DNA of 57,865 nt from a virus (lineage: Duplodnaviria; Caudoviricetes): positions 1 to 57,865 of the IMG/VR virus record IMGVR_UViG_3300044878_000063, one strand, 5' to 3'. The position numbers and the translations under genes were made by a program. The notes under the pieces are model-generated. The model did no database searches, was not told the DNA's origin, and saw nothing but the letters and a program-made list of their open reading frames with translations. Shown here one piece after another: positions 1 through 17,624 of this stretch (its first letter is position 1; every line of letters begins with the position of its first letter).

Positions 1-182
1 TCTGGAAGTACTGAGACCATAGGGTCTCTTTATCAAGAATGAGGAAGCCCTCTTCTGGACCAACCCCTAATTCCTGAAGTACGAAGAAAACGGTGTTGAT
101 ATGCACGATGATTTCCGTGTCATAGTCGGTTACGTCGGGTTCTATACCGCACAAACGCTTTGTTGTTTCGAGAATACTGAGA
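1..182. repeat. Terminal overlap, copy 1 (= 57684-57865); circular/concatemer assembly overlap
   Basis: Identical to the last 182 nt except G128 vs A57811. Confidence 0.97.
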
Positions 183-341
183 TCATCCACCAGTAGCACC
201 TCCTCCAGCAACCAACGTGAATACCCATGCGCCAATATGACATAGCGCAATGACCCACATGAGTAAGACGAAGAGAACGAAACTGGTGATCCCGAGCAAC
301 GCAGCAAATATGATGCTATGGAGCAATCGGGATGAAATCAT
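183..341 (-). CDS. Small membrane protein (52 aa), possible holin-like lysis accessory
   Basis: Hand-translated MISSRLLHSIIFAALLGITSFVLFVLLMWVIALCHIGAWVFTLV...; ATGA overlap with endolysin stop; not in ORF track. Confidence 0.65.
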   Translation of the reverse strand: MISSRLLHSIIFAALLGITSFVLFVLLMWVIALCHIGAWVFTLVAGGGATGG

Positions 342-1459
342 GCGTACCGTCGGTTGATTTCGGCCTGTACGGCATTGAAGTGAACTCCGAGAGCTGCACG
401 ACGTGCATCTCCATTGCCATATTTGCCTGCGAGAGTTTCCTCAACAAGCTGACCGATATTTACGCCACCATTGAGACGACGGTTGACCTCAGCCTGAACG
501 GCAGCGTAGTTCGCACCGAGCTTGGCGATACGCTGTTCACCGGAACCGTAGGCTCCAGCAATAACCTGATCGGCAAGCCATGCGATGTTGGGTCCCTGAG
601 GAGCAACACCACCGCCACCGGTACGAGCATTGATGACAGCCTGAACCGCGTCGTACTGCGCACCCAGTGAAGCGCGTCGAGCATCACCATTTCCGTGTTT
701 GCCCTGGAGGACTTCATCAGCAAGCTGATCGAGAGTCTTGGCCTGAGCCGGAGCTACGCCAATTCCATGACGACGGTTGACCTCAGCCTGAACCGCGTCG
801 TACCTCCCGCCAAGGGAAGCGCGTCGTGCCTCTCCGGAGCCGTGGAGACCAGCGATGACTTCATCGGCGAGCTGCCAATCTGTCTTCGCCTCGACGGGAG
901 GAGTTGCAGGGGTGGGTGCGACTACGGGAACTTCGACAGTGCCGTTTCCGCTGAGAATTCCGTTTGCGAAATCTCGCGTGCGAGGCATGAGCATCCAAAG
1001 ATTTCCGCCAGGGCAAGCAGTGGAGGACCACTGACGATGACCCTGGTAGCTACCTTCCGAAACTGCGCCCCAGCCGTAACGAGCTGCGATATCGGCGAGA
1101 AGTTCCACGACTGCCGAGTATGCCGCTTCGGAAATAGCCCAGGAATGCGGATCGTTGTCATTGCCGTTGATCTGACCCGATTCATTCTCCACCTCAAAGG
1201 TGATTGCAGGACCATCAGCTGCGATGGAGCCCGAGGTCCATGCACGGTACTCTTCCGGAACCTGACCCCAGATGGTGCCATCGTTCAGAATGTTGTAGTG
1301 AACCGAGGCCGGAGCATTCGGGTCAGTGAGACGCCGGGTACCCGCGCCATTCATCCCAGCATGATGGTGCTGAATTACTCGGACGACAGAATTGCCGTGA
1401 CGAGAGGAGAATTTGTTGTGATGGGGGATGGTTCCCGAGATGAGACTGGAAAATGTCAT
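338..1459 (-). CDS. Endolysin: N-acetylmuramoyl-L-alanine amidase (Amidase_2) with four Cpl-7/CW_7 cell-wall-binding repeats
   Basis: IQHHHAG, ASVHY, FEVEN, GHRQW..TACPG zinc-amidase motifs; four LADEV.AG..G.G..RR..LG..Y.AVQ..VN repeats. Confidence 0.92.
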   Translation of the reverse strand: MTFSSLISGTIPHHNKFSSRHGNSVVRVIQHHHAGMNGAGTRRLTDPNAPASVHYNILNDGTIWGQVPEEYRAWTSGSIAADGPAITFEVENESGQINGNDNDPHSWAISEAAYSAVVELLADIAARYGWGAVSEGSYQGHRQWSSTACPGGNLWMLMPRTRDFANGILSGNGTVEVPVVAPTPATPPVEAKTDWQLADEVIAGLHGSGEARRASLGGRYDAVQAEVNRRHGIGVAPAQAKTLDQLADEVLQGKHGNGDARRASLGAQYDAVQAVINARTGGGGVAPQGPNIAWLADQVIAGAYGSGEQRIAKLGANYAAVQAEVNRRLNGGVNIGQLVEETLAGKYGNGDARRAALGVHFNAVQAEINRRYA

Positions 1460-1890
1460 GCTACGTTCCTTAGCGATAGGTTACCCCACAACTGCGTATC
1501 ACCTTGACGTCGTTCAACGATCGGAAGTCGAAGAATTGAAGCGTCGCCATAGTGGATTGCATTGTGAGTATTGTGGGTTACGGAAATCAGGAATTCTGGA
1601 TTGAGAATATCCGGATTCCGACGGAGGACATCTTCAGGAGTGATTGGATTCATGTGATGAATAAGGATGCGATCATAAATTTCGAATCCAGGTACGCCAA
1701 GGTCGTTGCCGAAGTCCCGACTGATGACTTCATCACGAGCCCACTGCCATTCCTTGGATTTGTAGAATCGCTGATTGAGATGACGCTCATATCCGAACGT
1801 CGATTCACCTACTACGCCCTTGATGCTGAGGTAATCAAACCTCTGTACGAAGGTATCTAGCTGCTTAAGCTCAGAATACGATCTCGTCAT
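1456..1890 (-). CDS. HNH endonuclease, terminase-associated type
   Basis: FYKSKEW..ARDEVISRD, IHHMNPI, HNTHNAIH; start reassigned to ATG 1890 (MTRSY). Confidence 0.8.
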   Translation of the reverse strand: MTRSYSELKQLDTFVQRFDYLSIKGVVGESTFGYERHLNQRFYKSKEWQWARDEVISRDFGNDLGVPGFEIYDRILIHHMNPITPEDVLRRNPDILNPEFLISVTHNTHNAIHYGDASILRLPIVERRQGDTQLWGNLSLRNVA

Positions 1891-2278
1891 TAGCTTCACC
1901 CGTATCATGTCCGGCATAGCCGCGCATTGCGTCCATGGCTTCCTTGTAGAGTACCTTGAGTTCCTCAACGTTAGCAAGATCTTTAACCCTAGCCTCAACG
2001 AGGATAGTTTCCTGCTTAACCTTCTGGAGTTCGATCTTCTCACGAGTTGAACCAACCTTGAGAAAATGGACCATTACCTGTGACGATGCCGTGCCGTCGA
2101 GAAATTGCTGTTCAGCCAGATCGTAAGCTAGAGCAGCAAGTTGCGCTTCTCTTTGCTCTGGAGTTCGCGCTCTCGGCAAGCGTTTCACTGGCTGATCGTC
2201 CGGTTCAATCTCGCCATCATAAACTTCACGAGGTTTTACCAGCGCCGTAGACTTTTTAGGTCGGCCAGGGCCCGCCAT
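1871..2278 (-). CDS. Putative terminase small subunit
   Basis: N-terminal GRPKK, helical 135 aa, near cos and next to HNH; AGGAGG RBS. Confidence 0.6.
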   Translation of the reverse strand: MAGPGRPKKSTALVKPREVYDGEIEPDDQPVKRLPRARTPEQREAQLAALAYDLAEQQFLDGTASSQVMVHFLKVGSTREKIELQKVKQETILVEARVKDLANVEELKVLYKEAMDAMRGYAGHDTGEANDEIVF

Positions 2279-2398
2279 AGGTAATCACCTCCTTGTTATC
2301 AATTGTAGTTAGAGTGTCGTAAGTTGCCAGAGTGGCTAAAATACGCAAAAGTTAAAAGTCCATGTACATTCTGCTTGTCTAAAACGCAAAACTAGGAA

Positions 2399-2955
2399 GT
2401 CCATGTAGAGACTTCATGAAAGAGCACTAGGTCTCGAACGTTTAAGTACGTTACCAACCACAGTCACAACCTCAAACGCCTCTTGAAAGGAGTGTAGGGC
2501 GATGAACCCCTACTTTGTTTGTGAGATCTAGTACTCTATCGTGAAGTCTCTACGCGGATTGATAGGACTTTGGTATGACTTTGCTTCCAGATAGGACACC
2601 GGTTATACGCGTCGGCAATGGACGATCGGGTCGTCTGCGTATGGTCTTACCCCGGTGATAGCCGGTGACCTGTCTGGAGGCAAAAGAAGAAAATGCATGT
2701 ACAGATAGAAGGGCGTTTAGCTCTCAACCGCGCCAACGGTTCTCGAACTAGCCTTCGTGATAAACCCGGAAACCACTCCAACCAGGAGAATCTAAACGCC
2801 CATCTAAACATACATGCTTTCTCGTCCCGCCTGAAAGAGCTCTAGGTCTGGGAGATACCTCAACCAGGCCATTAAGCAATCATTGGGTCGTGGCCCCTAG
2901 CCCTATGCTCAACGTTACCTAGAGCTCTATCGGGCGGGACGAGAAAGTATGTGTG
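2399..2955 (+). ncRNA. Candidate structured RNA: four tandem long stems with branched tips
   Basis: Stems 2399-2436/2522-2559, 2580-2606/2658-2684, 2695-2720/2792-2817, 2809-2847/2917-2955; no ORF of 60 aa or more; G-U pairs favour +. Confidence 0.55.
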
Positions 2956-2958
2956 CGA

Positions 2959-3192
2959 CTAGGAGGCTGGTGCCTTGTCCTTGTCCTTGTCACCGGCAGC
3001 GGGTGCTACAGGTGTTGCTGACCGAGAGCGGGACGACGTTTTCTTGTCGGCCTTCTCGTTGTCGGCGTGCTTGGCCAGGCGAGCATCGATGACGCGCTCG
3101 AGCTTGTCCTGGTTTGGGATGAGCCACTCGGAAACCGGAGTGGTCTCGGGCGCCTTTACGGCTTCTTCGGTTGCTTCGGGAGTTTCTGCCAT
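2959..3192 (-). CDS. Hypothetical protein, first gene after cos (77 aa)
   Basis: AAAGGAAGG RBS; low-complexity charged protein with one helix (NQDKLERVIDARLAKH). Confidence 0.75.
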   Translation of the reverse strand: MAETPEATEEAVKAPETTPVSEWLIPNQDKLERVIDARLAKHADNEKADKKTSSRSRSATPVAPAAGDKDKDKAPAS

Positions 3193-3265
3193 GGTGGTAA
3201 ACCTTCCTTTGGAATGTTTAGAGTGAATTGTTCCCCCAGAATTTTCCCCCGGGGCATTTTTTCAG

Positions 3266-3274
3266 AGGTCGGCG
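3266..3274 (-). other. Putative cos site, 9-nt 3' overhang CGCCGACCT
   Basis: Lies in the gap between the last operon and the packaging genes; matches from recall the overhang of related Arthrobacter phages. Confidence 0.7.
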
Positions 3275-3279
3275 ATGCA

Positions 3280-3310
3280 GGGAGGGGGGCCTATTTGCGA
3301 GACCCCTCCC
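3280..3310 (-). terminator. GC-rich hairpin at the right genome end
   Basis: GGGAGGGG...CCCCTCCC inverted repeat downstream of the last gene. Confidence 0.4.
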
Positions 3311-3346
3311 CCCATACCGCTTTACTAAGCAGTCACTATTAAATTG

Positions 3347-3592
3347 TTATGAAGTTGTGAGTTTTTCTGCGGGTGGAGGTACACGAATGTACATTCCAGT
3401 GATGTTTTCATCCAAGATCTCTTGAATTGCAATGTCGATAGCTTGACTTTCATCAAGTTCTGACAACTCATCACTAGTCTTGCAGATCCTAGCCTGGTAA
3501 GACAAGGTGTGGTACCCTGACTGAATGTCCCAGTTGTTCCACTGATCGAACTCAGTGTGAGGATTGTATGGATTGTCAGAGGTAGATAGCAT
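3347..3592 (-). CDS. Hypothetical acidic protein downstream of RNAP
   Basis: MLSTSDNPYNP..FDQW; AGAAAGGA upstream. Confidence 0.75.
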   Translation of the reverse strand: MLSTSDNPYNPHTEFDQWNNWDIQSGYHTLSYQARICKTSDELSELDESQAIDIAIQEILDENITGMYIRVPPPAEKLTTS

Positions 3593-3630
3593 GATGCACC
3601 AACACTATTCCTTTCTACTTTGTTCGTAGC

Positions 3631-6393
3631 CTAGGGCTTAGGCTTAGGTGGATTGAGAGATGTGTCAAGAGTACTCACTGATACCCCAAGAGCAGCAGCA
3701 ATCTCAGACTGTGAATGACCATTGATCAGCATAGACTTAGCCCTAGTCAGCTTAGCTGAGGTCATTACCTGCTTCTCTCTAGGAGTAGCAAGGCCCTTGA
3801 CTACATCAAGATCAGCATTGGCAAGGATCTTCTCCAACATGTTGGTACTAATAGCACCAGCCTGGATAGCTTCCCATTCAACGGGGGTAATCTTGATACG
3901 CTGGGGTTTAGCACCCGTTCTAGCACGGCCTTCTGCCTGAGCAAGACTCTTAATCTTCTTCAGTTCAGCAGCATCCATGTTCGGATTAGCCTGTACCTTG
4001 GCCTGTACTATGCCACCTGCAATCAACTGGGCATGGCGTTCAAGAGGCTTGTTCTTGAGGGCGATGTTCAGCTTTGCATTGAGGGCACTTACCTCATTGG
4101 GGTAGGCCTTCTTTGCTGACTGGGAGTAAGGAATAGGGACGGCATTAACTGCCTCTTTCCTACTGTCATTAGCCAGAGCCTTGAGCCTATTGGCATGGTT
4201 GGCATAGACATTCTCCATGATGGTGTTCTCTTTAGACACCAGTGCATGAGCATCCTCATAGTAATCCATCTTCTTGACCTTAGTGGTCTTAGGGATGGGG
4301 TTACCTACAGGGAGCTTAGTTACTGGGTCATACCGATAATAGCCATTACCCGTTTCAACATAGACCTTCTTACCAGTCTTCTTGTCAATAGGGCCACCAT
4401 CTTTGGCAGAACGGAGTACTCTCTCAGGAACACGTACTTCAGACTTGGCCTGTGAGATGATGGTTGATGCACCACCAGCTTTACCAGAAGGCTTCATCTG
4501 ATACTGCTTCTTTAGGGCAGCAATACCATTGTCCTTGGCAGATTGCTTGTAATCGAGGTGGTGTTTCTCAGCATCAATCACGACCATTGAGTGTTTCACT
4601 GCACGAGCAATCTCACTAAAGGGTGCGCCCTTAATGGTCATGTCTGTAATCAGGTTCGACACATCACCCATCTGCTGACCCTTAGCCTTAGCCGACATTC
4701 TAGGAGCGTCGTCAGGCAGGGAGTACAGTTTCTTGGGGTCGAAGTTCTTAAGCTCCTTCAGTGGAGCCGAGACCTTTACTCGACCAGGCCCTGATTGTGG
4801 ATTCGGGATTACCAGTACCGTGTCACCATCGAAGTCTGCACCAGACAACTGTTCGGCAACCTTGGCATTGATACCAATTGCATCTCGAGCTTGCTTGATA
4901 ATGCTGTTTGCTTCACGGTTCTTGTTATTGACCGTCAGTTCAGGGATCTCAAAAGTTCCACCATGGGGGTGTCGAATGAGAACTACCTTTTCACCATCCC
5001 TATATTTAGGGGCGAATACTTCGGTATCCTTGAGGCTGTTGATCGGCAAGATGACGTGATTAGCAGTACGAGGCAGACCTGCTGCTTTGAGATGTACAGC
5101 TGAAGAGTCGGAACCATCTGCGAACTTCTCCAGAAGGGTCCTTTTCACAACCGGGTTTGTGAGGGCCATGATTTCGTCGTATTCTTGCTTTTTGAGATCG
5201 AAGCTTGCGTCAAGCTGCTTCTTTGCAAGAACAGGGCTCTGCTTAGACATCATCTGTGAAGAGAGTTTACTGGACCACTTGGTCCAGTCGCCTTCCTCGT
5301 TGACAATGTTCAGTGCTGAGGTGACGGTTTCAGAACCATCCTTGTTTTTCTTTGTGATTTGCTTTACGGCAGAACCAAAGGGGTTTGGGTCATCAGGATC
5401 GCCTTTCTGATCCTTCATGGCCTTCAGCTTGTCGCCTTTATCCGATTTATTGGTGTTGAACATCAGGTCTACACCATCAGGAAGGTTATCTGAGTAGATC
5501 GCCATTCCCTTTAGGTAGTGAGTGCCATTTACGCCAATTCGAACTTGAGCATAACGAGCATTCCCCATATCGAGGTCTTTTACGCCACGACGAATCTCAA
5601 TTACACCATCTTTATCGGCTCCGCCATCTTCAGCGTACCGAACGCCTACTCGCTTGAGTGAAACGTTAAGAGGAGGCAACATTCCGAGATTCGTGAAGGT
5701 GCGACCGCCATCAGGAGAATCGCCAAGAAGCGGAACAATCTCTTTCTGCCTTTTTACGACATCAGAGTAGGTCATATCACCTGCGGTCAAGACTTTCAAG
5801 CTGGTGAACTTACCAGGGTTTCCCATTTGCGGGATCTTGACATAGTGAACCTTGTAGCCCTCTTCTTTAAGCACATAAATTGCTGTGCCGAGGCGTTCGT
5901 TACTAACACCGAGATGGTTCGCCGTTCCGGCTCCAAAGTCGACCATTTTCTTTTCGTCGACCTGCTTGCGGACAATATTCGCAGTTGCCTGGATGGCGTC
6001 CTGATTGTCTTTCTCCGCAGCAGCAAGAAGTGCTCGAACAGAAGATTCGTTTCTGCCCATCTGTCGGCCAATGGCCACATTAGACATTCCGGTACCCTGG
6101 AGCTTCAAAGCTTCAGCAATATCGGCACGTTTGATCTGTTCGTTGGAAGTAGAGGTAAGAGCACGAAGCTGCGTCGTGTTCATCTTATACTCTTTACCAT
6201 CAGCATCCACACCACTAAACGCTGCCGCGATTTGGGTGGGGGTCATTCCCTGCTTCTGGAGATCTTCCAAATGCTTCTTGAAGGATCTTGCACGTTGTTC
6301 CGGATTGGCACCGCTGCCCCAAGGGTAACGGCCTGACTTGCGAAGAACGCCTTCATGCCGGAGGAAGCTGGAATTAGTCATGTCTTTGCTCAT
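3631..6393 (-). CDS. Single-subunit two-barrel RNA polymerase (YonO / QDE-1-like) with HTH domains, 920 aa
   Basis: QLSGADFDGD (ADFDGD at 4822-4839), IRHP, AQVRI...KGM, G.VSN, HS..VIDAEK; N- and C-terminal HTH segments; AGAAAGGAG RBS before ATG 6393. Confidence 0.8.
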   Translation of the reverse strand: MSKDMTNSSFLRHEGVLRKSGRYPWGSGANPEQRARSFKKHLEDLQKQGMTPTQIAAAFSGVDADGKEYKMNTTQLRALTSTSNEQIKRADIAEALKLQGTGMSNVAIGRQMGRNESSVRALLAAAEKDNQDAIQATANIVRKQVDEKKMVDFGAGTANHLGVSNERLGTAIYVLKEEGYKVHYVKIPQMGNPGKFTSLKVLTAGDMTYSDVVKRQKEIVPLLGDSPDGGRTFTNLGMLPPLNVSLKRVGVRYAEDGGADKDGVIEIRRGVKDLDMGNARYAQVRIGVNGTHYLKGMAIYSDNLPDGVDLMFNTNKSDKGDKLKAMKDQKGDPDDPNPFGSAVKQITKKNKDGSETVTSALNIVNEEGDWTKWSSKLSSQMMSKQSPVLAKKQLDASFDLKKQEYDEIMALTNPVVKRTLLEKFADGSDSSAVHLKAAGLPRTANHVILPINSLKDTEVFAPKYRDGEKVVLIRHPHGGTFEIPELTVNNKNREANSIIKQARDAIGINAKVAEQLSGADFDGDTVLVIPNPQSGPGRVKVSAPLKELKNFDPKKLYSLPDDAPRMSAKAKGQQMGDVSNLITDMTIKGAPFSEIARAVKHSMVVIDAEKHHLDYKQSAKDNGIAALKKQYQMKPSGKAGGASTIISQAKSEVRVPERVLRSAKDGGPIDKKTGKKVYVETGNGYYRYDPVTKLPVGNPIPKTTKVKKMDYYEDAHALVSKENTIMENVYANHANRLKALANDSRKEAVNAVPIPYSQSAKKAYPNEVSALNAKLNIALKNKPLERHAQLIAGGIVQAKVQANPNMDAAELKKIKSLAQAEGRARTGAKPQRIKITPVEWEAIQAGAISTNMLEKILANADLDVVKGLATPREKQVMTSAKLTRAKSMLINGHSQSEIAAALGVSVSTLDTSLNPPKPKP

Positions 6394-6409
6394 TAGGGTT
6401 ACTCCTTTC

Positions 6410-6997
6410 TTATCCGACGAGGTCTTCGAACATCTCTTCGAGGATGCGATCGCTGGTCTTGATGCGATCAATTACGTAGACTAGGTCTTCAATGCCGGGG
6501 GACCAAGCTTCATAATCATCATTCTGGTAGATTCGAAACTCGACAAAGTCGAGATCGCCTGGTAGAAAGTCATACTCGAGCATGAAGAAGCCTGCATAGA
6601 TCAACAGCTGATCGAATGAGGCTCTAGAGACTCCGGTTTTGAGATCGAAGATGCGAAGCTCATTCCGCATTTGACCATCGACTTCAATTGTTCGAAAGCC
6701 AATAGCATCTGCAGTACCGAAACTTCGAATCGAATAGAACAAGACCTGTTCCGGCGTCATGTTGAAGCCGATTGAGTCATTGACGTATCGATTCAGGGTT
6801 TTCCCATTTCGGGGAAGCTTCTGCCGCATCTTGATACACATAGCCGCGAAGTTGTGGAGCTCAGTTCCTTTGGCAGCCTGCAGCTGCGTCAAGAACCAAT
6901 TCTGAAGCTTCTCTTTCGAGTACCTCAGCCAGTGATACTTACTCGCGGAAAGCGTGGCGTGCTTACCTGCGAGATGTGAATGAGCGTTGAAGATCAT
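6410..6997 (-). CDS. PD-(D/E)XK (Cas4/RecB-like) nuclease
   Basis: HATLSAS, GTELH, GTADAI, IFDLKTG, QLLIYA. Confidence 0.8.
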   Translation of the reverse strand: MIFNAHSHLAGKHATLSASKYHWLRYSKEKLQNWFLTQLQAAKGTELHNFAAMCIKMRQKLPRNGKTLNRYVNDSIGFNMTPEQVLFYSIRSFGTADAIGFRTIEVDGQMRNELRIFDLKTGVSRASFDQLLIYAGFFMLEYDFLPGDLDFVEFRIYQNDDYEAWSPGIEDLVYVIDRIKTSDRILEEMFEDLVG

Positions 6998-7277
6998 TAA
7001 GAACAGCCTCTTTGTTTTCCGGGTAGATGACTGAAGCGTAGGACATCCGATTGAATTGATCGATGTACCACTCTTGATTTGGTCGGAAGGGGGAGTTGGC
7101 GCTCCGCTTCACTTCTAGCACTGCCCAACGATCTCGCCATAGAATCAGGCGATCGGGAATTCCCTGTCGCTGACTCGAGTCGAGTTTGAACATGTAGCTG
7201 CCCGGGAGTATCAACTCCGTGACATCATGATAGAGATCCGCTTCGAAAGCGCTCTCTAGTTTGGTAGCTCTTGGCAT
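6963..7277 (-). CDS. VRR-NUC domain nuclease / resolvase
   Basis: LESAFE, GIPDRLI, LEVKR, RPNQ; start reassigned to ATG 7277. Confidence 0.85.
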   Translation of the reverse strand: MPRATKLESAFEADLYHDVTELILPGSYMFKLDSSQRQGIPDRLILWRDRWAVLEVKRSANSPFRPNQEWYIDQFNRMSYASVIYPENKEAVLNDLQRSFTSRR

Positions 7278-7333
7278 GAGACCAATCCAATCGCAAAAAT
7301 TATAGGCCATGGAATTTCGACATCCTGGCCCTT

Positions 7334-7360
7334 TCATTATAGGGCATGTATAGCTTGCGT
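7334..7360 (-). promoter_or_regulatory. Isolated copy of the 27-bp phage promoter upstream of the nuclease-RNAP operon
   Basis: ACGCAAGCTATACATGCCCTATAATGA on -; same spacing as the array copies. Confidence 0.8.
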
Positions 7361-7387
7361 GTTCAATGTCCGAAAAACCCGGCTTAG

Positions 7388-7709
7388 TGGCCAGTTGGCC
7401 AGAAAACCCATTTGTGGACAAAACTCTTTATATATACCTTTTTTCTCCTCACACAAAAGTTTTAGGAAATAAGTGGCCAAATGGCCAACTTGGACAGGAT
7501 TGATGCCTTGTGGGCGCTAAAAGGGGCTGAATTGAGCCGTTTTCGACCCAAAACAGCCCCTTTTTTCGGACATTGCCCACAGAACTGCTGGCCACTTTTG
7601 AAACCGTTTCTGGCCATATGGCCACCACTTTTGGCCACGAGCCCAAAAACTTGGACAGAAACGCCCACAAGATTTCAAAATAAGTGGGCAGATGGCCACT
7701 TAGTGGCCA
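7388..7709. repeat. TGGCCA-repeat non-coding region, putative replication origin
   Basis: 10 perfect TGGCCA palindromes plus near-matches and an AT-rich tract (~7420-7445). Confidence 0.6.
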
Positions 7710-7716
7710 GCAGTTT

Positions 7717-8115
7717 TTAGTGCCCGAACCTGTACTGCCGGTACTCCTTGTGAGTCATCGGGACTTCTACCCAAGACTCCGTGTACTTGTTGAACCAGCG
7801 GTGGATGGGGAGCTCGTGCTTGTGTACTACACGATAGCAGTTCGAACCACCCTCCATGATCTTACCGGCCTCCTCGAGCTTCTGGAGTTTGGTAGCAATC
7901 ACCTTAGGCGGGATGTTGTCCCAGGCCTTGCAGATGTCGCTGAAGTGCGCCGCGTTCGAGTAGCTTACTCCCAAGTCCACGCCGTTGTAGTTCAGCCTGT
8001 AGAAGAGCCGTGGGACGTTGTACAGGCGATCGATGAGGTCGATGAGTGCCTGCTCGGGAATGTGCTTAGCCTGGATCTTTTGCGTTTTGATCCTAGGAAT
8101 CTCAGGAATCGCCAT
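7717..8115 (-). CDS. Hypothetical protein, possible winged helix
   Basis: GGAGG RBS before MAIPE; PPKVIATKLQKLEEAGKI. Confidence 0.7.
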   Translation of the reverse strand: MAIPEIPRIKTQKIQAKHIPEQALIDLIDRLYNVPRLFYRLNYNGVDLGVSYSNAAHFSDICKAWDNIPPKVIATKLQKLEEAGKIMEGGSNCYRVVHKHELPIHRWFNKYTESWVEVPMTHKEYRQYRFGH

Positions 8116-8251
8116 TCTTAGCCTCCTCCGCTTCCTCTGCCGCAATGACCTGACGCAGGGCCGTGGTATAGTTCATCCCCGGGTTTTCTGCCTGGATCGC
8201 CCGTGCCTTGCGTTTCCGCTGGCGCCGAACGTACTCTGCTTCATCCATCAT
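8102..8251 (-). CDS. Hypothetical protein (49 aa)
   Basis: Hand-translated MMDEAEYVRRQRKRKARAIQ...; AAGGAG RBS. Confidence 0.65.
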   Translation of the reverse strand: MMDEAEYVRRQRKRKARAIQAENPGMNYTTALRQVIAAEEAEEAKNGDS

Positions 8252-8274
8252 TTACTCCTTGTGGTTGGTATTAG

Positions 8275-8436
8275 TTACTGATCGTGCTTACGCTCTCTCA
8301 GCACTTCATGAATTTTTCGTGCAAGGTGTCTTGCTAGAACTCTGGGATTCTCACCGACATACTCGCCACATTCGCATCGTCCTCTGACACTGAACAGATG
8401 CTGGTTGATGACTTCGTCGATATCATCTTCGTTCAT
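8275..8436 (-). CDS. Small His/Cys protein (53 aa)
   Basis: Hand-translated MNEDDIDEVINQH...CECG...ARHLA; coupled to upstream stop. Confidence 0.6.
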   Translation of the reverse strand: MNEDDIDEVINQHLFSVRGRCECGEYVGENPRVLARHLARKIHEVLRERKHDQ

Positions 8437-8612
8437 TTACGAGTATCGTAGTGACATGATTCGCCCCACCCAGGCGTGTTGTACCACTCGCCTCCGGAAG
8501 CTACACAAGCCTTAACAACTCTGCCTCGTTCCTGGAGCTGCTCTTCAGGAGACTGAATGCAGCCAGTCAGTGTGCCTAGACATAGAAGCGCTATGAGTAG
8601 TTTCTTCATCAT
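8433..8612 (-). CDS. Small lipoprotein (59 aa)
   Basis: MMKKLLIALLCLGTLTGC lipobox; not in ORF track. Confidence 0.7.
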   Translation of the reverse strand: MMKKLLIALLCLGTLTGCIQSPEEQLQERGRVVKACVASGGEWYNTPGWGESCHYDTRK

Positions 8613-9001
8613 GCGCTCCCGAAACGTGCTTCAGCACCGTAGACTTCGCCTCGTGCACGAGCATGGAGCTCATGGTTCCAGTTGAGCAGCGACCAGTCAT
8701 AGTCGAGGTTGACCGGCTTGATGCGAGCTCGGCGACCTTCCAGCAATCGGAAGTCTCTTGCCAGGACGATCTGTTTCCTCGGGACACTGTACATGTCTGA
8801 GAACTCCCTGGCACTTTTCAGAGAGCCTCCGAAGTCGAGATAGACCACATCCATCTCTCCGCCGATCTGAGCCTTCTTACGGATGTCCAGCACCTCGTGG
8901 ACACCGTTGTAGTACTCAAGCATCTGATCATGCGGGATGAGGTTGATAGCATCTCCAATGACTGCGTCGAAGAGCCAGCGGTTTACGCGGAGCTTACCCA
9001 T
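8609..9001 (-). CDS. Hypothetical protein
   Basis: Start reassigned to MGKLR (TAATG coupling). Confidence 0.7.
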   Translation of the reverse strand: MGKLRVNRWLFDAVIGDAINLIPHDQMLEYYNGVHEVLDIRKKAQIGGEMDVVYLDFGGSLKSAREFSDMYSVPRKQIVLARDFRLLEGRRARIKPVNLDYDWSLLNWNHELHARARGEVYGAEARFGSA

Positions 9002-9114
9002 TAAACATTCTTCTTTCGTTTGTACCACCAGGTGAGGAATACGAAGATGGTTGACCACGATACTGCGATACCGATGCCACCACCGATTAGAGCTCCCAGA
9101 ACTGTGCTGTCCAT
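9001..9114 (-). CDS. Single-TM microprotein (37 aa)
   Basis: MDSTVLGALIGGGIGIAVSWSTIFVFLTWWYKRKKNV; coupled at both ends. Confidence 0.7.
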   Translation of the reverse strand: MDSTVLGALIGGGIGIAVSWSTIFVFLTWWYKRKKNV

Positions 9115-9302
9115 CACACGCTCCAATCATTCGGGTCGTCCGACTTGCCCCAGCCGAACTTGAGGTCCAGTACTGAGAGGCATAGGAGTATGAAGCAAAG
9201 GATGACGCCTACCCATGCACTTGATCCTCCATTAAGGCCCACTAGACTGAAGATGATCAGCCCGCCAAGCCACCAAATACAAACTGCTATTTTGAGCATC
9301 AT
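9114..9302 (-). CDS. Two-TM membrane protein
   Basis: Hydrophobic 62 aa; coupled overlaps. Confidence 0.7.
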   Translation of the reverse strand: MMLKIAVCIWWLGGLIIFSLVGLNGGSSAWVGVILCFILLCLSVLDLKFGWGKSDDPNDWSV

Positions 9303-9580
9303 GCTACTTTCAGAGGGTCTAAGCCGACTACCCTAGTCTGCTTGGGTTCGTTGTAAAGCTCAGGCCATGCCGCACGATGAAGTTCGTCGACAAATGCTTC
9401 GCAACTGTAGCCATTCTTGGAGTTGAATAGCATCACTTTCTGGATAGGGCACCCAGTGTGCCTGTCCATTACCTGAGTAGGCGAGACGCCCCTCTTTGTC
9501 AAGATGGAACGGACCCGCCGAGAGGCCGCGATTTCGTAGTGAGGATACTTCTGACACTTCCGGTACTCGGAGGTGCTCAT
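9299..9580 (-). CDS. NUMOD4-like domain protein
   Basis: EYRKCQKYPHYEIAASRRVRS...VDELHRAAW; start reassigned to 9580. Confidence 0.55.
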   Translation of the reverse strand: MSTSEYRKCQKYPHYEIAASRRVRSILTKRGVSPTQVMDRHTGCPIQKVMLFNSKNGYSCEAFVDELHRAAWPELYNEPKQTRVVGLDPLKVA

Positions 9581-9929
9581 CGATCCAGCATTGCTCAATT
9601 TGACTCCCCAGCCAAGTCTTGCCGTATCCTCGAGGTGCGATACGGTACAGGTTTTGTCTTTTGTACAGTTCTTCATCAAGCATCTCATGGATCTTTGCCC
9701 AGGATGCTCGGACTTCTTCCCGCCGAGGTTTGTCATCGATTATGTCCCATTCGGTACGCAACCAATTTTCAATGTGACCCCAGCCACCCATGCCCCCACT
9801 AAGCTCACGCATCCCATCAATCTGAGACTCGTAGATGACCGGCTTCCAGTCAAAGGGACGATCACGATACTCTTCTTCTGCCTGTGTTTTGGCGTTGAAG
9901 AGCGTCTTTACAAATTCGGACTCCGTCAC
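9360..9929 (-). CDS. Hypothetical protein with a P-loop-like motif
   Basis: APRGYGKT; 3' end overlaps the next gene by ~220 nt. Confidence 0.55.
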   Translation of the reverse strand: MTESEFVKTLFNAKTQAEEEYRDRPFDWKPVIYESQIDGMRELSGGMGGWGHIENWLRTEWDIIDDKPRREEVRASWAKIHEMLDEELYKRQNLYRIAPRGYGKTWLGSQIEQCWIDEHLRVPEVSEVSSLRNRGLSAGPFHLDKEGRLAYSGNGQAHWVPYPESDAIQLQEWLQLRSICRRTSSCGMA

Positions 9930-10210
9930 TCCAGAACCTCCTCAATGATCTCGTCCTTCTTGAGGTGCTTCTTCTCCTTAATGATCGCCTCGGTGTCCTT
10001 GACACGGTTCTCATCGGGGAAGGTAGAAGGCTTCCAGCGCTCCTTAGGGACTCGTACGACAGTGATGGGCCCTTCAAGATCCTCGACCTTATTGGGATGC
10101 GTAGCAAGCACTACGTTCTCCCTGGGTACCTCATTTTCCACTGCCCATGCTGTTGCGATGCTGTCAGTGCCGAAGACAACTGCCTGCTGCGGTATGGTGA
10201 TCTTCTTCAT
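9926..10210 (-). CDS. Hypothetical protein
   Basis: Coupled ORF; shares a VPR..[IV]VLA segment with 8609-9001. Confidence 0.7.
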   Translation of the reverse strand: MKKITIPQQAVVFGTDSIATAWAVENEVPRENVVLATHPNKVEDLEGPITVVRVPKERWKPSTFPDENRVKDTEAIIKEKKHLKKDEIIEEVLE

Positions 10211-10374
10211 TCAGCTGCTTCTTTCTTTTCCCGACGAGAGCCTGCAGCCTTGTATGAGAGAATTGTCGTAAGCAACAGGAATGCTGCAAACCACCATGGC
10301 GAAATCAAACCGACAACTGCCAGCGTCAGTACTGAGATCATGGCGGACCAACTAAGGATGAATGCCCAGGTCAT
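10207..10374 (-). CDS. Two-TM membrane protein
   Basis: MTWAFILSWSAMISVL...; ATGA coupling. Confidence 0.7.
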   Translation of the reverse strand: MTWAFILSWSAMISVLTLAVVGLISPWWFAAFLLLTTILSYKAAGSRREKKEAAE

Positions 10375-10868
10375 GCGGCTTCCTTTTCTGTGAGGTTGGG
10401 AAAGGTCTGGCGTAGCAGCCATTCCTGTGTGTATACGTGCTGACCTGATGAGTTCATCAGGCGATATGACTTGGCGCCAGTTTCAGCGTCGACGATCGGA
10501 TACACTCGCCTCCTACCGGCTCTGTACCGGATCTCGCCACTTTCATGCATTTGGTGCTTAGGGAAACCCGGTATGTCAGTCCAACCTACACGGATGATCC
10601 GCTTTACAGGTTTGAGCTTCTTAGGCGGAGCGTCTTCAGGGAATGCTTCATTTACCAATGACTCATAAGTGCGTGCAGTCCCTCCTCCATCATCAGTCCT
10701 CATGCTGTATGCATAGGTGTCTGTAGTTTTATTGTGCGTTTCCTTGAGCAACCGTCCACGTGGACCAATAAGGTCGCCACTGCGATTGATCTTGTAACGC
10801 TTCATACTAGGGATGGGGCGAAACTCATCCTTCGAGACATCGCGCCCATCTAATGTGCGTAGAAACAT
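10371..10868 (-). CDS. Tandem NUMOD4-like domain protein
   Basis: EFRPIPSMKRYKINRSG and GWTDIPGFPKHQMHESG. Confidence 0.65.
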   Translation of the reverse strand: MFLRTLDGRDVSKDEFRPIPSMKRYKINRSGDLIGPRGRLLKETHNKTTDTYAYSMRTDDGGGTARTYESLVNEAFPEDAPPKKLKPVKRIIRVGWTDIPGFPKHQMHESGEIRYRAGRRRVYPIVDAETGAKSYRLMNSSGQHVYTQEWLLRQTFPNLTEKEAA

Positions 10869-10889
10869 TGTGCTGAGACCTTGCTGTGT

Positions 10890-11348
10890 TTAGTTGGTAA
10901 GCTCAGGGAACATTTTGAACATGAGCCATTCGACATTCATCCATTTCATGCTGTTGTTGTCATCACACAGCATTGCACGACGCCTATCGAATTTCACCTC
11001 AGTCGCGACCGTCTTCTGAGTTTGCTTGTCGATAATCATTCCTCGGGAATTTATGATGTAGCCAGAGAACCCTTTGATTGTCCGCCAACCTCTCGGATCA
11101 TCTGATTGACCTGGCTTATCATCATGAGCAATTTGATTCTCGAAAAGCTGTTTTGGTTGGGGCGGGAAGCCGTGGAGAATACGATCCAGCATCTCCACCT
11201 CTTCTTCAGGCGTAGGGGCCTTATCGACCCTGATAAACCTGTGCGCAGTTTCAGAACCAGCCGAACCTAGGAAGAATCGGACATCGATCTCCAAGACATC
11301 GCCAGTCTGCTTACCGTCTGCGTAGATAGGAAGACGTACTGACCTCAT
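10890..11348 (-). CDS. Protein with C-terminal NUMOD4-like domain
   Basis: GWRTIKGFSGYIINSRG. Confidence 0.65.
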   Translation of the reverse strand: MRSVRLPIYADGKQTGDVLEIDVRFFLGSAGSETAHRFIRVDKAPTPEEEVEMLDRILHGFPPQPKQLFENQIAHDDKPGQSDDPRGWRTIKGFSGYIINSRGMIIDKQTQKTVATEVKFDRRRAMLCDDNNSMKWMNVEWLMFKMFPELTN

Positions 11349-11578
11349 GCCACCTTCTTTTCTACTTCGAAGAAGCCGTTGTCGAGTTTCTTGCCGACAA
11401 CATACCGAGTTTCCAACCCCACCTTAGTGAAGATGCCCAGGTACTGTGTGGCTCCGAACTCTGCCAGAAGGTAGAGACCCGAGGAGTATTCTAGGAAGCC
11501 CCGGTCCATGTTGTACTGGGACTCGAGCGTTGCCTTGTTCTGCTTGTCGATCTTTACTGCTTTGAGATTCGTAGCCAC
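11345..11578 (-). CDS. Hypothetical protein
   Basis: GGAG RBS; abutting neighbours. Confidence 0.7.
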   Translation of the reverse strand: MATNLKAVKIDKQNKATLESQYNMDRGFLEYSSGLYLLAEFGATQYLGIFTKVGLETRYVVGKKLDNGFFEVEKKVA

Positions 11579-11890
11579 TTACTTCTCCTTTGGGTATGCT
11601 GCCGACATGATGGCATCGAGTGAAATTACATGTTTCTGTCCGTTGATCCAGAAGTCTACAAACTCGCCTTCTTCTGGACGCAACATGTACTTGTAGGGTT
11701 GGCACTGAGCTCCGGTAGTCTTCCTACGAATCTGCCGGAGCTCAGTGACCTCATACTCAGGAAAGCCAGGGACCGGCTTCCAGTTCGGATCGTTCTCTGC
11801 CGTCAGTCTTACGAGATGTGCGCTGAGTACGCCATATCCTTTGGCGCGCTTGTACAGATCCGGACCAGGCTTAGGTTTGTGCTTTCCCAT
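11579..11890 (-). CDS. NUMOD4-like domain protein
   Basis: NWKPVPGFPEYEVTELRQI. Confidence 0.65.
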   Translation of the reverse strand: MGKHKPKPGPDLYKRAKGYGVLSAHLVRLTAENDPNWKPVPGFPEYEVTELRQIRRKTTGAQCQPYKYMLRPEEGEFVDFWINGQKHVISLDAIMSAAYPKEK

Positions 11891-11920
11891 GATTCCCCCT
11901 AGATGTTGTTCTTGGTTAGT

Positions 11921-12346
11921 TTAGAGCTTCTGCATCTTGTAGATGACTGACGGGCGCTGGACCCGGTTGAAGAGGTTCACTGTTGCCCGAACATCGGCAT
12001 TAGCGTAGTTGTGCATAACAACTCCCTGAATGTCCTTGAGTCGCTTCGACTCTTCATCACGCTTGATGGCATCCTTGTAGACGCTGTCAAAGGTGATGAG
12101 ATTGCCCTCATCATCCCGGTGACCGAGATTGTCCATGACCATCTGCATGAGCTCAACGACGACGCTCCAGGGTACGGCAAGGATTGTGACCTGCTCGAGC
12201 TTCTGCAACTTGTTGACGCGCTTCCGCGACAGGGAGACGAACCGGTTGTCCGTCCGTACCCAGTAATTGCCGTCGTACATGAACTTGCCGTAGTGACCGG
12301 CAACCTCGATGATGGTACCTTTGGGGTGCTTAGAGAGTTTCATCAT
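11921..12346 (-). CDS. Hypothetical protein
   Basis: AAAGGAG RBS; 141 aa. Confidence 0.75.
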   Translation of the reverse strand: MMKLSKHPKGTIIEVAGHYGKFMYDGNYWVRTDNRFVSLSRKRVNKLQKLEQVTILAVPWSVVVELMQMVMDNLGHRDDEGNLITFDSVYKDAIKRDEESKRLKDIQGVVMHNYANADVRATVNLFNRVQRPSVIYKMQKL

Positions 12347-12373
12347 TGTCTCCTTTCGAGAGATTTTTGCTAG

Positions 12374-12625
12374 TTAGACACGCCACTGTGGGCGTAACAG
12401 ATCCTTATTCATACTGACGTACATGATGCCTCGCGCTACAAACACCATGTCATTAGGCTCGCCCATCCTCAGCGACCGACTCATTGAAAGCATGAAGATC
12501 TCACGAACAAGACGCTTGGTAAGTCCCACTCGACGACCCATCTCGTAGGCCTTCTCGAGATTGGTCAGGAGTGGCGGTGCAGACTTTTGATCGGTGAATG
12601 GATTGTGAGGAACTTGCGGACTCAT
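12374..12625 (-). CDS. Hypothetical protein
   Basis: ATGA coupling to helicase. Confidence 0.65.
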   Translation of the reverse strand: MSPQVPHNPFTDQKSAPPLLTNLEKAYEMGRRVGLTKRLVREIFMLSMSRSLRMGEPNDMVFVARGIMYVSMNKDLLRPQWRV

Positions 12626-13851
12626 AGAGCTTTAACCCAGTTCTTCTCATTGAAGTTCTTCTTCTCAAGGATTGATTTAAGAATAGCCTTATCAATCAGA
12701 GCTCCGGACTTCAGAATGTAGTAGTACAGATCGACATACTTAGTGTTCAGTCGATCGATTCGTCCCTTGGCTTGGTGGTTGATCTTGTAGGAGTAGTTAA
12801 GGGAGAAGAAGGCCATTGCGTCGGTAGTAATACAGTTCCATCCCTCAGCGCCTGCTGTATACTGGACGAGATAGATCCATTTTTTACTAGTAGGGACTGA
12901 CTCATGTTTCTGACCGTTCCACTCAGCACTTTTAATTCCGTGGAGTTTTCCAAGCGTTCGAAGGTCTTCAAGTTCGTAGTTGAAATTGTAGAAAACGATG
13001 AGTCGATCATGTTGATCCAGGAGTTCCGAAATTGCCTTGAGGCGCGACGGATGCGAGTTAACCAGTTTTCGAGCGACCAGGAAGAGTTCGCCAACATCCT
13101 TGATCGGTCGATCCTCGTATATATGCCATCGGTCTTTCCAAAGCCGTTTAAACTGTGCTTCGTCATGCCGAACTGGTACATACTTGATGTGACGTTTGGT
13201 ATGACGTGGGTACGGCATGTTAACGGTGATAGACCGCACATGTTTAAGGAGCACGCCGGTATCCAGATAACGTTCGATCTGAGGGAACTTAGTGAACCTT
13301 CGATACATAACGTGCCGGTCGGTGAAGTCTGTCTTGTTCTTGTAGAACCCGTTTGCCACGAATACCGGAAGGTAGTCCATCCAGACATCTCCAGGAGTGG
13401 CGCTGAGCAGAACCCACTTGTTGTTTTTAGCAATCTGGACAAAGGCCTTAGACCAAGCACCCCATCCGACCACGCGCTGTTCGTCAAAGATGAAGAAGGC
13501 ATTCTCTACATTCCTATACTTCTCGATGTTGTTCCATGAATCAACAAAGACTTGTGCCCCAGTGTGGCTAAGCTCAAATTTGGTTGACAGACCAAACGGC
13601 GCGCATTCATCCTCCCACTCGAGGCTATTACGCTTCTTTGCCGTCGTGATGATGTAGAGGTCCCGAGGGTTCTCCATAGGCTTGTAATCGCCGAAGCCAT
13701 TTCGTCGAATGTCGCCTTTACATTCTTTAATGAGGTAGTAAGCGATCGCAGTGATTGACTTGCCGGTACCAACGTCTCCATTGAGAATGCAACCATTCTT
13801 CATCTTCTCCAGTGCAGTAATCTGATGGGGGTGTAGATTTATTGAGGCCAA
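12622..13851 (-). CDS. SF2 (SNF2/DEAD-like) helicase
   Basis: LHPHQ, DVGTGKS, IFDEQR, LSATP, GAEGWN, QAKGRIDR. Confidence 0.9.
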   Translation of the reverse strand: MASINLHPHQITALEKMKNGCILNGDVGTGKSITAIAYYLIKECKGDIRRNGFGDYKPMENPRDLYIITTAKKRNSLEWEDECAPFGLSTKFELSHTGAQVFVDSWNNIEKYRNVENAFFIFDEQRVVGWGAWSKAFVQIAKNNKWVLLSATPGDVWMDYLPVFVANGFYKNKTDFTDRHVMYRRFTKFPQIERYLDTGVLLKHVRSITVNMPYPRHTKRHIKYVPVRHDEAQFKRLWKDRWHIYEDRPIKDVGELFLVARKLVNSHPSRLKAISELLDQHDRLIVFYNFNYELEDLRTLGKLHGIKSAEWNGQKHESVPTSKKWIYLVQYTAGAEGWNCITTDAMAFFSLNYSYKINHQAKGRIDRLNTKYVDLYYYILKSGALIDKAILKSILEKKNFNEKNWVKAL

Positions 13852-14213
13852 GTCTGATTAACTTCTGGTAGGGTTCGCGTCATTTCATTCCACTTCCAAC
13901 GCTCGATGCGTACTTCTGCCGGATATAGCTGATCCTTACAGGTCTTGCATTTGAAGGTCAGCCAATAGTCGGATCGATTTACAATCTTGCCAATAGGTCC
14001 AGACCAGGACAGGCTCGTAAATTTATACGAATGCTTATGGGGTACTGACACAACTCGATCCCTATAGAAATCCGAGATGATCTTCGATCCGATGCTAGGG
14101 TTTGCTCGCTCCCAATCATCCTTTGCGACGGATTTAATGCCCAGACAATATCTAGGCCAAAAGAAGAACCAAGTGTGAGCGAAATGTGGTTCGTCGTTAT
14201 GGCATTGCATCAA
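13839..14213 (-). CDS. Hypothetical Cys/His protein
   Basis: C-x5-H-x2-H...C-x-G and CKTC. Confidence 0.65.
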   Translation of the reverse strand: MMQCHNDEPHFAHTWFFFWPRYCLGIKSVAKDDWERANPSIGSKIISDFYRDRVVSVPHKHSYKFTSLSWSGPIGKIVNRSDYWLTFKCKTCKDQLYPAEVRIERWKWNEMTRTLPEVNQTWPQ

Positions 14214-14359
14214 TTAGCCCTCCTTACTTCTTCGAATGCGTTTGCATATGACCAACCGATGCAGAAGTAGTCACCGGCACCAGCATAGTTCTTAGCTCCA
14301 ACGTGAAGCCAGTGTCCATCATGCTCGTACCGGTGACCACAAAACCTGTAGAAGATCAT
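14210..14359 (-). CDS. Small Cys/His protein (49 aa)
   Basis: MIFYRFCGHRYEHDGHWLH...YFCIG; same C-x5-H-x2-H pattern as neighbour. Confidence 0.55.
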   Translation of the reverse strand: MIFYRFCGHRYEHDGHWLHVGAKNYAGAGDYFCIGWSYANAFEEVRRAN

Positions 14360-14444
14360 TAGATTTTAGTCGTATGCAGCCAGCCCTGAGGCCCCCGCTC
14401 TACATTGCCAGTGCAGTTTGTGTTGCCGCAATTGCAGGAATTTT

Positions 14445-14945
14445 TCATGCTGCATTTTCTCCGTATTGCTCTTCGTAGTAGCTGTACGTATAGCCCATGT
14501 GGGATCTACGCTCGCCCCTCAAGCAAGCATAGATACTTCCATAGTCGCCTCCGATATAATCGGCACAGTCCCTAGCGGTTCTGTATACCGCACCAGTCTC
14601 ATTGACCAGCACTGGACGACTCGTCAGTCGGATACGCCTTTGTGGCATGTCTTCTGGACGAGGCTGTCTGCGAAGGTGCAGGTTAATTACCCGGCAGTCT
14701 TCAATGTCGCCATTAACGGGAATGACTTGCTGCCGTGGATCATATTCAGCAAGGAATGCTGCGGCAACCAGGCGATGTACATAAAAGTCTCGAACTTGTC
14801 CAAGATGTGAAAGGGAGACCCGAAGGTAGCCCTCGTCATTCGGACGAAGCTTCAACAATTCATCGCGTTTAATATTAGCTACGCGGCCCATGTTGCTGAC
14901 TGCGTAGTTTGGATAGCCATCAACAGCCACCCATTCTTCCCTCAT
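14445..14945 (-). CDS. NUMOD4-HNH-NUMOD1 homing-endonuclease-like protein with degenerate HNH
   Basis: EEWVAVDGYPNYAVSNMGRV, VHRLVA, VIPVNGDIEDCRVINL, C-terminal HTH. Confidence 0.8.
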   Translation of the reverse strand: MREEWVAVDGYPNYAVSNMGRVANIKRDELLKLRPNDEGYLRVSLSHLGQVRDFYVHRLVAAAFLAEYDPRQQVIPVNGDIEDCRVINLHLRRQPRPEDMPQRRIRLTSRPVLVNETGAVYRTARDCADYIGGDYGSIYACLRGERRSHMGYTYSYYEEQYGENAA

Positions 14946-15020
14946 GAAACCCTTTCAAAAATTGAGACCAAGCAGAGTGGGGGCCAGGAATAATCCCAAC
15001 CCCCACTCAGTATTTAGTTG

Positions 15021-15233
15021 TTAAGCTGCGTGTGGTTGAGACCTGGGCAGTTTTAGATCAATAGGAACTACTTCAGCTATGACTGGAGGTTTACAAGTGG
15101 CATCAGTCAAGTGCTTTCGACTCTCACTTGTTGGAACCCACATGTCGACTGGCCAATCACGGTTCTTGCACATATAGTGGAGCTTGTATCCGCACCTCGG
15201 GCATTCCAAACGGATTGCTGGTCTGAGACTCAT
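15021..15233 (-). CDS. Small zinc-ribbon-like protein
   Basis: CPRCG. Confidence 0.55.
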   Translation of the reverse strand: MSLRPAIRLECPRCGYKLHYMCKNRDWPVDMWVPTSESRKHLTDATCKPPVIAEVVPIDLKLPRSQPHAA

Positions 15234-15253
15234 TCTATATCCCCCAATTCCTA

Positions 15254-15797: not shown

Positions 15798-15830
15798 GGA
15801 CTACTGCACCCCATTCTTCGATGGTGTATT

Positions 15831-16826: not shown

Positions 16827-16832
16827 GTCGCT

Positions 16833-17201: not shown

Positions 17202-17263
17202 CGTTTTATACCTTTCAAGAGTTGAGAGGGGCGGTAGATCTCTCCACCGCCCCCCAAGTATTA

Positions 17264-17623: not shown

Positions 17624-17624
17624 G

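Follow-up and report, generated by a model that had tools for sequence, protein, structure and literature searches.

The hairpin locus and its setting

The DNA analysed here, called the window below, is a stretch of 57,865 bp (positions 1 to 57,865 of IMG/VR record IMGVR_UViG_3300044878_000063) from a phage of the Caudoviricetes. The record has an estimated completeness of 97%, carries nearly all of its genes on the - strand and shows synteny to the Mudcatvirus and Gordonvirus groups of Arthrobacter phages. For example, its endolysin shows 64.7% identity to the endolysin of phage Niktson, and a 946-aa protein (3631-6471, - strand; phrog_4291) shows 55% identity to its counterpart in phage Cheesy. 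The latter protein, which has HTH motifs at both ends, is the YonO/crAss-like single-subunit RNA polymerase homologue of the supercluster; a phmmer search of it against PDB sequences gave no match. An HTH-flanked homologue of this kind is given as a mark of the actinophage-Firmicutes phage supercluster in the relevant part of the preprint (bioRxiv 10.1101/842583). Elsewhere the window encodes a fused primase-DNA polymerase of 1270 aa (18820-22632, - strand; phrog_4210). The interval 30500-37000 contains few ORFs of at least 90 aa, has a strong positive GC skew on the + strand, and is probably an array of small membrane-protein genes as described for clusters AM and AU.

In cultured relatives, the left end has the order small gene(s), non-coding stretch, phrog_4259 gene, HNH endonuclease, endolysin and terminase, and the polymerase gene adjoins the right genome end. 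In the window, this non-coding stretch has a gp1-like gene (2959-3192) on one side and the phrog_4259-HNH-endolysin genes (2278 down to 338) on the other, and it is here that the hairpins (Table 1) sit. The genome of Cheesy closes with one small gene and the polymerase gene; by synteny, the cos region, and with it the physical end of the genome, is probably near 3193-3346. With an end there the contig appears circularly permuted, one ORF (2-307) running off one end and another (57484-57864) off the other. The presumed end also contains an inverted repeat of G/C runs.

Table 1. Features of the hairpin locus and copies of the start-site tag in the window.
Feature	Position	Strand	Remarks
Endolysin	338-1459	-	Downstream of phrog_4259 gene, with HNH endonuclease
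HNH endonuclease	1456-2055	-	Downstream of phrog_4259 gene
phrog_4259 gene, function not assigned	1871-2278	-	First gene after the hairpins
Spacer between H1 and next gene	2340-2418		38-nt direct repeat (2340-2377 and 2381-2418); TTTTGC motif on gene strand
H1 (hairpin 1), conserved core	2398-2560 (arms 2398-2436/2522-2560)		39-position outer stem around a multi-branched loop; covariance-model match 2395-2563
Invariant 13-mer CTCTTGAAAGGAG	2480-2492	+	H1 inner loop; only tag copy opposite to the genes; gene strand reads the exact complement of the tag
P4, small inner hairpin of H1	2494-2513	+	6-bp stem, 8-nt loop; ATG at 2502-2504, 9 nt past the 13-mer, opens a 9-codon ORF only
H2 (hairpin 2)	2581-2683 (arms 2581-2606/2658-2683)		26-position arms; inner sequence conserved in three relatives
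H3 (hairpin 3)	2686-2826 (arms 2686-2720/2792-2826)		Lower stem competes with H4 for 2809-2826
H4 (hairpin 4)	2809-2955 (arms 2809-2847/2917-2955)		H1 paralogue without the 13-mer
Small 77-aa gene upstream of hairpins	2959-3192	-	Same position as Cheesy gp1
Tag copy, 1 mismatch	12350-12362	-	3-6 nt ahead of ATG of 141-aa gene
Tag copy, 2 mismatches	17209-17221	-	7 nt ahead of ATG of 122-aa gene
Tag copies, 2 mismatches	27152-27164 and 28874-28886	-	Similar to the 17209 copy
Tag copy, 1 mismatch	30490-30502	-	5 nt ahead of ATG of 66-aa gene
Tag copy, exact	36990-37002	-	5 nt ahead of ATG of 92-aa gene, right after TATAAT

The initial annotation, made from the letters of the window, had proposed four tandem long hairpins, and four consecutive hairpins (H1 to H4) were indeed found within 2398-2955. 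When 2380-2960 was folded, the + strand gave -251.4 kcal/mol (shuffles -167.7 ± 8.0; z -10.44) and the - strand -249.6 kcal/mol (z -10.55), and on each strand 0 of 100 shuffles was as good. Six inverted repeats with a score of at least 14 occur in the whole window; three of these are in the hairpin region, the two best among them. H3 and H4 cannot both form fully at once, since the 3' arm of one and the 5' arm of the other share the same segment. The A-A mismatch noted for every stem is present when the stems are read on the + strand (one each in H1, H2 and H4, two in H3). It is retained in the closest relatives only, and elsewhere a Watson-Crick or G-U pair occupies the position. The suggested homology of H1 and H4 was borne out by an 18-nt direct repeat at 94% identity and by a match of the H1 covariance model to H4 at 41.5 bits. 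As had also been claimed, the region is devoid of substantial reading frames: 2279-2958 has no ORF of at least 60 aa and only unconserved ORFs of 31-54 aa.

Searches for known elements were negative within their scope. Families in Rfam include phi29 pRNA, 6S RNA, Y RNA, GOLLD and ROOL. A cmscan of 1800-3700 with E values up to 10 returned four chance-level matches, none of them inside 2399-2955 and none near its gathering score. A scan for tRNA and tmRNA found none, and blastn of 2280-2960 against 50,697 phage records gave no match. On the gene strand, a TTTTGC motif is seen about 8-14 nt beyond the 3' foot of hairpins, twice after H1 in the window (2340-2418), and also after hairpins in the relatives L008, L010, L013, L015, L016, Argan and Qui; it is not a canonical terminator tail. 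Genome-wide, neither CCAACCA-type nor TTTTGC motifs are enriched on either strand.

The only public RNA run that holds any words of 2000-3400 (6% of them) contributes a single 159-nt contig at 3168-3326, which does not cover the hairpins and is silent either way on their transcription. This contig (one difference, depth 3.1), the only match of 1-20000 in that run, includes a G-rich hairpin close to the presumed genome end as well as the gp1-like gene's start and 5' region.

Conservation and covariation of the hairpins

Homologous hairpins are present in thirteen IMG/VR relatives, which were located via the neighbouring phrog_4259 protein. Eight H1 sequences, read opposite to the gene direction, went into a covariance model of H1, and it is for this reason that its matches always lie opposite to the gene strand. 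H1 is an element of about 150 nt with a single occurrence in each of 20 distinct Arthrobacter-/Microbacterium-phage-like sequences. It is always found upstream of the HNH/lysin/terminase operon, 23-191 nt ahead of the next gene start. The model gave one match per record in Argan, Salk and MiniBagel (three of five records), matched Qui and Damascus (two of another five), and also matched Niktson. H1 was present in 6 of 74 further IMG/VR loci encoding a related HNH nuclease. No match to the model was seen in the Streptomyces phages PherryCruz and LibertyBell, Gordonia phage Conley, Faecalibacterium phage FP_oengus or Lactococcus phage P078. In Damascus, H1 occupies a 172-nt gap between two same-strand genes, 23 nt ahead of the next start; in Cheesy it is likewise in a gap between two same-strand genes, 31 nt ahead of the next start.

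The stems change in sequence while pairing is kept. In a MAFFT alignment of 13 H1 homologues, double-sided changes were observed in 33 of 44 predicted pairs, as against 16.9 ± 2.3 in 500 shuffles, none of which reached 33; a control in which the partners were slid gave 5-13 double-changed pairs. In the same 13 sequences, 92.7% of alignment cells are paired, compared with 37-47% when slid. The inner hairpin P4 shows covariation in four of its five pairs. Double changes were also found in hairpins of the H2 type (10 of 34 pairs, four sequences) and of the H3 type (22 of 37 pairs, five sequences). Relatives keep the order H1-H2-H3 type, and more distant phages have one to four long hairpins at the same place. 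The proposal of a structured non-coding RNA is therefore supported as far as sequence can show, by strong compensatory covariation in H1, H2 and H3, a covarying inner hairpin and the absence of a conserved ORF. The hairpins are real and conserved, and they almost certainly act as folded single strands, most likely RNA. H2 to H4 are conserved companions of H1.

The genes between H1 and the phrog_4259 gene vary. In the close relatives L008 (1060-1460), L010 (760-1070), L015 and L016 there is an extra small gene with a signal-peptide-like start, and in L011, L012, L014 and MiniBagel an ORF of 413-460 aa is found there.

A start-site tag with one reversed copy

The most informative feature was missed in the initial annotation: its loop carries the sole reversed copy of the phage's own 13-nt start-site tag. 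This 13-mer is the only invariant block of H1 and is exact in 20 of 20 distinct H1 sequences, whose GC content ranges from 35 to 59%. At up to two mismatches the window holds seven copies of the tag, where 1.93 ± 1.26 are expected and 0 of 100 shuffles reach seven. Apart from the + strand copy in H1, the six others are all on the gene strand, each 3-7 nt ahead of an ATG that opens an ORF of 56-141 aa. They span 12.3-37.0 kb and stand in front of small non-structural genes. A 9-mer search for other loop sequences that recur in the window returned the tag alone.

The same arrangement is found in relatives. At up to one mismatch, the forward and reverse counts are 13 and 1 in Qui, 6 and 1 in Damascus, 5 and 1 in Cheesy, 2 and 1 in MiniBagel, 1 and 1 in Argan, and 2 and 1 in both Salk and Niktson. 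Four IMG/VR records have 2, 1, 1 and 0 gene-strand copies with one opposite copy each, and the record with none is a fragment with an estimated completeness of 51%. In all 13 records scanned whole, the window included, there is a single reversed tag, and it is always the H1 copy. Controls with the pattern reversed gave 0-1 matches. Gene-strand copies lie at 24-96 kb in the named phages (0-13 per record), and 20 of 20 tag copies from Qui, Cheesy, Argan and MiniBagel, read by eye, are 5-9 nt ahead of an ATG, GTG or TTG. The tag is missing, in exact or near form, from five related phages of other hosts that lack H1. At up to two mismatches it is still missing from four of them, the exception being P078 with two weak copies, and it is also absent from three unrelated Microbacterium/Curtobacterium phages. 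This co-occurrence of H1 and tag is confounded with phylogeny and host.

Given the gene-strand copies at gene starts, the single reversed copy in H1 and the absence from the compared phages that lack H1, the motif can be regarded as a private start-site tag, its rarity being judged among phages. On sequence grounds, H1 represents an element family that is new and has no earlier description, linked to a putative private start-tag regulon. The tagged starts at 28874-28886 and 36990-37002 (- strand) are directly downstream of TATAAT boxes, and a TATAAT-GAGAAC-tag arrangement is also seen in Qui, Cheesy, Argan and MiniBagel. This suggests that an early promoter is conserved and that its tagged leader is very short.

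A comparable tag has been described in mycobacteriophages. [quoted passage not shown] 2011). Since 2011, hundreds of mycobacteriophage genomes have been listed as carrying them, and no mechanism has been put to them. Passages on them in papers of 2024 and 2025 still call their role unknown (PMC11373665, PMC12699233). In the Cluster K phage Anaya we find 16 forward SAS and one reverse SAS, the latter in a 385-nt gap before gp97-gp98-HNH. Read on the gene strand, the reverse SAS lies within a 10-nt hairpin loop (z -5.96, as opposed to -2.86 for the other strand). Adephagia has the same reversed SAS in the gap between genes 92 and 93, with a compensatory change in the stem, and late transcription appears to start in this gap according to the pertinent portion of the Adephagia RNA-seq paper. 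ZoeJ (K2) and Pixie (K3) have tags and no reversed copy in the late-leader gap, Pixie having none above control level; a reversed copy there is thus not required for tags to exist. ZoeJ does have a single near-exact reversed SAS in mid-genome (31723-31735, - strand), about 100 nt from a forward SAS.

The two tags are alike in several respects. Both are asymmetric 13-nt sequences that contain AGGAG and stand 3-9 nt ahead of ATG, both occur in many copies of one orientation in the non-structural half, and for both the one reversed copy is found in a non-coding gap that precedes small genes and an HNH endonuclease (re-checked in Anaya and Adephagia). In contrast, the tag sequence and the phage lineage are not the same. 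The reversed copy is here part of a large multi-branched hairpin with a 35-bp covarying stem, usually followed by an ATG and accompanied by up to three further hairpins, whereas in the K1 phages it is in a simple stem-loop with no start codon after it. Because its 13-mer differs from the Cluster K consensus, the tag described here is an analogue and not a member of the Cluster K SAS.

Strand, mechanism and alternatives

The initial annotation had assigned the hairpins to the strand opposite to the genes, on a hand count of 11 G-U pairs on the + strand and 2 on the - strand. The first number was reproduced and the second was not: the main stems give 11 G-T on + and 5 A-C (G-U on -). Whole-region minimum free energy structures have 18 and 20 G-U pairs on + and -, and over 13 homologues the H1 outer stem has about 15 and 14 wobbles on the two strands. 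With such counts the + strand call is left without wobble support. Fold energies and loop composition are mixed: the strand favoured by per-strand energies varies with the phage among 19 homologues, and the A/T and G/C skew of the hairpin interiors favours no strand. In favour of the + strand, a U-G at one H1 stem position recurs in 7 of the 13 sequences.

Several features point to the gene strand. There, the central 7 nt of the tag complement cost a predicted 0.23 kcal/mol to open (mean of 13 homologues), as against 2.24 on the other strand, and by this measure the open loop is seen in 13 of 13 homologues. The duplex of tag and anti-tag (13 bp) has a predicted energy of -19.6 kcal/mol, and the H1 loop is complementary to 13 of 13 nt of the copy at 36990 and to 12 of 13 nt of those at 12350 and 30490. 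Since H1 fills a gap between same-strand genes in Damascus and Cheesy, transcription along the gene strand needs no extra promoter. The gene-strand reading is also favoured by Cluster K, whose reversed SAS points the same way.

What the sequences themselves show is a covarying structure of fixed place and orientation, a single reversed tag and an accessible loop; the choice of transcribed strand, the pairing in vivo and the effect on translation are inferred. The locus is probably a regulatory RNA that would switch the tagged genes together. The more specific reading, put forward tentatively and with chances a little below even, is that H1 acts as a gene-strand RNA, binding the tag through its open loop and so damping the translation of tagged genes. 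H1 would be transcribed along with the genes (window - strand), and its long covarying stem would present a small loop, the exact complement of a private 13-nt ribosome-binding tag CTCTTGAAAGGAG that stands 3-9 nt ahead of the start codons of several non-structural genes. This loop could pair with the tag on mRNAs, probably loop to loop first, as the tag itself is able to form a 5-bp hairpin. Pairing would hide the Shine-Dalgarno site, and the tagged genes would be turned down together once left-end transcription is under way. H2 to H4 would be lineage-specific companions that may stabilise, insulate or process the RNA. With comparable caution, the four hairpins as a whole may be described as a conserved structured-RNA locus with H1 as its functional core, which in this Gordonvirus/Mudcatvirus-like Arthrobacter phage closely precedes the rightward HNH-lysin-terminase-structural operon.

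Antisense RNAs that occlude ribosome-binding sites are known from phages P1 and P7 (c4 RNA) and from IS10 (RNA-OUT). The proposal for H1 resembles both in that a stem-loop RNA exposes a loop complementary to the translation initiation region of its targets, and it resembles c4 further in that the targets are on the same strand as the regulator. It differs in that one 13-nt complement would here address several unlinked genes via a shared private tag.

A wider version of the anti-tag proposal can be considered. A second, unrelated phage lineage obeys the same rule: forward tags are many, and the single reversed one sits in a conserved hairpin that precedes HNH/late genes. That the rule holds in two lineages argues for RNA as the partner and brings the puzzle within reach of simple genetics in culturable Arthrobacter phages. 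Tags with one mirror-image hairpin copy might be a general translational switch in actinobacterial phages, where the mirror RNA, made with or just ahead of the late operon, would pair with many early/middle mRNAs and shut them off. Such a switch would explain the Cluster K SAS, and the four-hairpin locus would be its RNase III-processed, multi-unit version. This generalisation is more speculative, and only about one chance in three would be given to it. If true, it would mean a phage-encoded, regulon-wide translational switch, through which phage engineers could influence when early genes are expressed.

In the orientation of the initial annotation, a leftward (+) transcript would show the tag, a spacer, an AUG and a mini-ORF in H1 and act as a mimic that titrates the readers of the tag (30S subunits or a phage factor), unless the loading of the ribosome itself is what matters. 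In 16 of 19 H1 sequences the reversed tag on + is followed by an ATG at 4-10 nt, even where the surrounding hairpin sequence is entirely different, and the result resembles a complete start site. The tag's own 5-bp hairpin (P3), with its invariant U-G, pairs fully on + only, and the main stems of the window have the excess of G-T on + given above. In the annotation of Cheesy a leftward gene, gp2 (372-569), begins at the H1 ATG. However, the ORFs after the ATG range from 3 to 65 codons and their frames shift between close relatives, by which a conserved + strand peptide is ruled out; with no peptide selected, the mirrored start codon fits an anti-tag and a mimic equally well. All other genes are rightward. 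Damascus and Cheesy have no intergenic room for a leftward promoter, which would fall inside the next gene, and a consensus promoter scan detected none on the + strand. Moreover, one site per RNA would make a weak sponge, and the wobble bias of the window vanishes across homologues. Such a mimic RNA is the main rival of the anti-tag reading and is considered rather unlikely.

Hairpins can also serve as punctuation. In T7-like early mRNAs they are processed by RNase III and need no conserved loop sequence. The hairpins here share with them a place near the left genome end, a tandem intercistronic arrangement, and long, imperfect stems in which an internal mismatch is conserved. They might be a gene-strand barrier or terminator that separates the late operon from the unit upstream, or processing or 3'-stabilising hairpins of the T7 kind, with the reversed tag as a relic of an inverted duplication. 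Several features would fit: the array marks an operon boundary, RNase III could act on stems of such length (26-39 positions), and T-rich TTTTGC tracts come after H1 and H3 on the gene strand and recur after hairpins in relatives. The most conserved part is here the loop 13-mer, however, and a relic would not remain exact in 20 of 20 sequences of such different GC content while the stems change freely. In addition, the T-run begins 7-14 nt past the stem foot and does not adjoin it, so that the long stems are not the G+C-rich stems directly followed by a U-run that define intrinsic terminators. A terminator scan gave two weak sites against 1.7 expected, with no excess over shuffles. Punctuation as the sole function is improbable.

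The packaging RNA of phi29 (pRNA) is also encoded at the left genome end. The locus resembles it as a structured RNA gene near that end, whose fold combines a branched junction with a long terminal helix; it differs in that the region has no Rfam match and in that the phage has an ordinary large terminase and HNH nuclease.

An element that acts as DNA is about as improbable as punctuation. In single-stranded or supercoiled DNA, hairpins or cruciforms near the left cos end could serve packaging, ejection or replication, or be hairpin promoters for the phage's YonO/crAss-like RNA polymerase, much as small hairpins at the left end of phage N4 are promoters. Between the left end of the genome and the hairpin array there are 37-54 nt in Argan, MiniBagel, Qui and Lactococcus phage P078, the fold z-scores are equal and the stem wobble counts balanced on the two strands, and the tag can be drawn as a 5-bp stem with a 3-nt loop. 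Against this, H1 of Damascus is 2.1 kb away from the genome end, on which ground a cos/packaging-site function as the main reading was rejected. Loops of 51-125 nt make the extrusion of cruciforms unlikely, the 13-mer elsewhere sits like an RNA signal, at variable spacing 3-9 nt ahead of start codons, and H1 is missing from five relatives with the same polymerase. A role in which the phage RNA polymerase would make primers at an origin is not favoured either, given that the phage encodes a primase-polymerase of its own.

The weakest alternative, MITE-like mobile elements piled up by chance in one intergenic region, would account for units of 105-165 nt whose long terminal inverted repeats have motifs in common (CATGTAG...CTAG), yet it is very improbable, since all records searched whole have one locus in a fixed place and orientation with no dispersed copies seen, the arms covary rather than preserve a transposase-binding sequence, and the order of hairpin types is conserved in relatives. 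Long inverted repeats beside a genome end are also found in supercluster members without H1: Lactococcus phage P078 has one with 30-nt arms (37-195), and Gordonia phage Conley has one with imperfect 55-nt arms at its right end (511-642).
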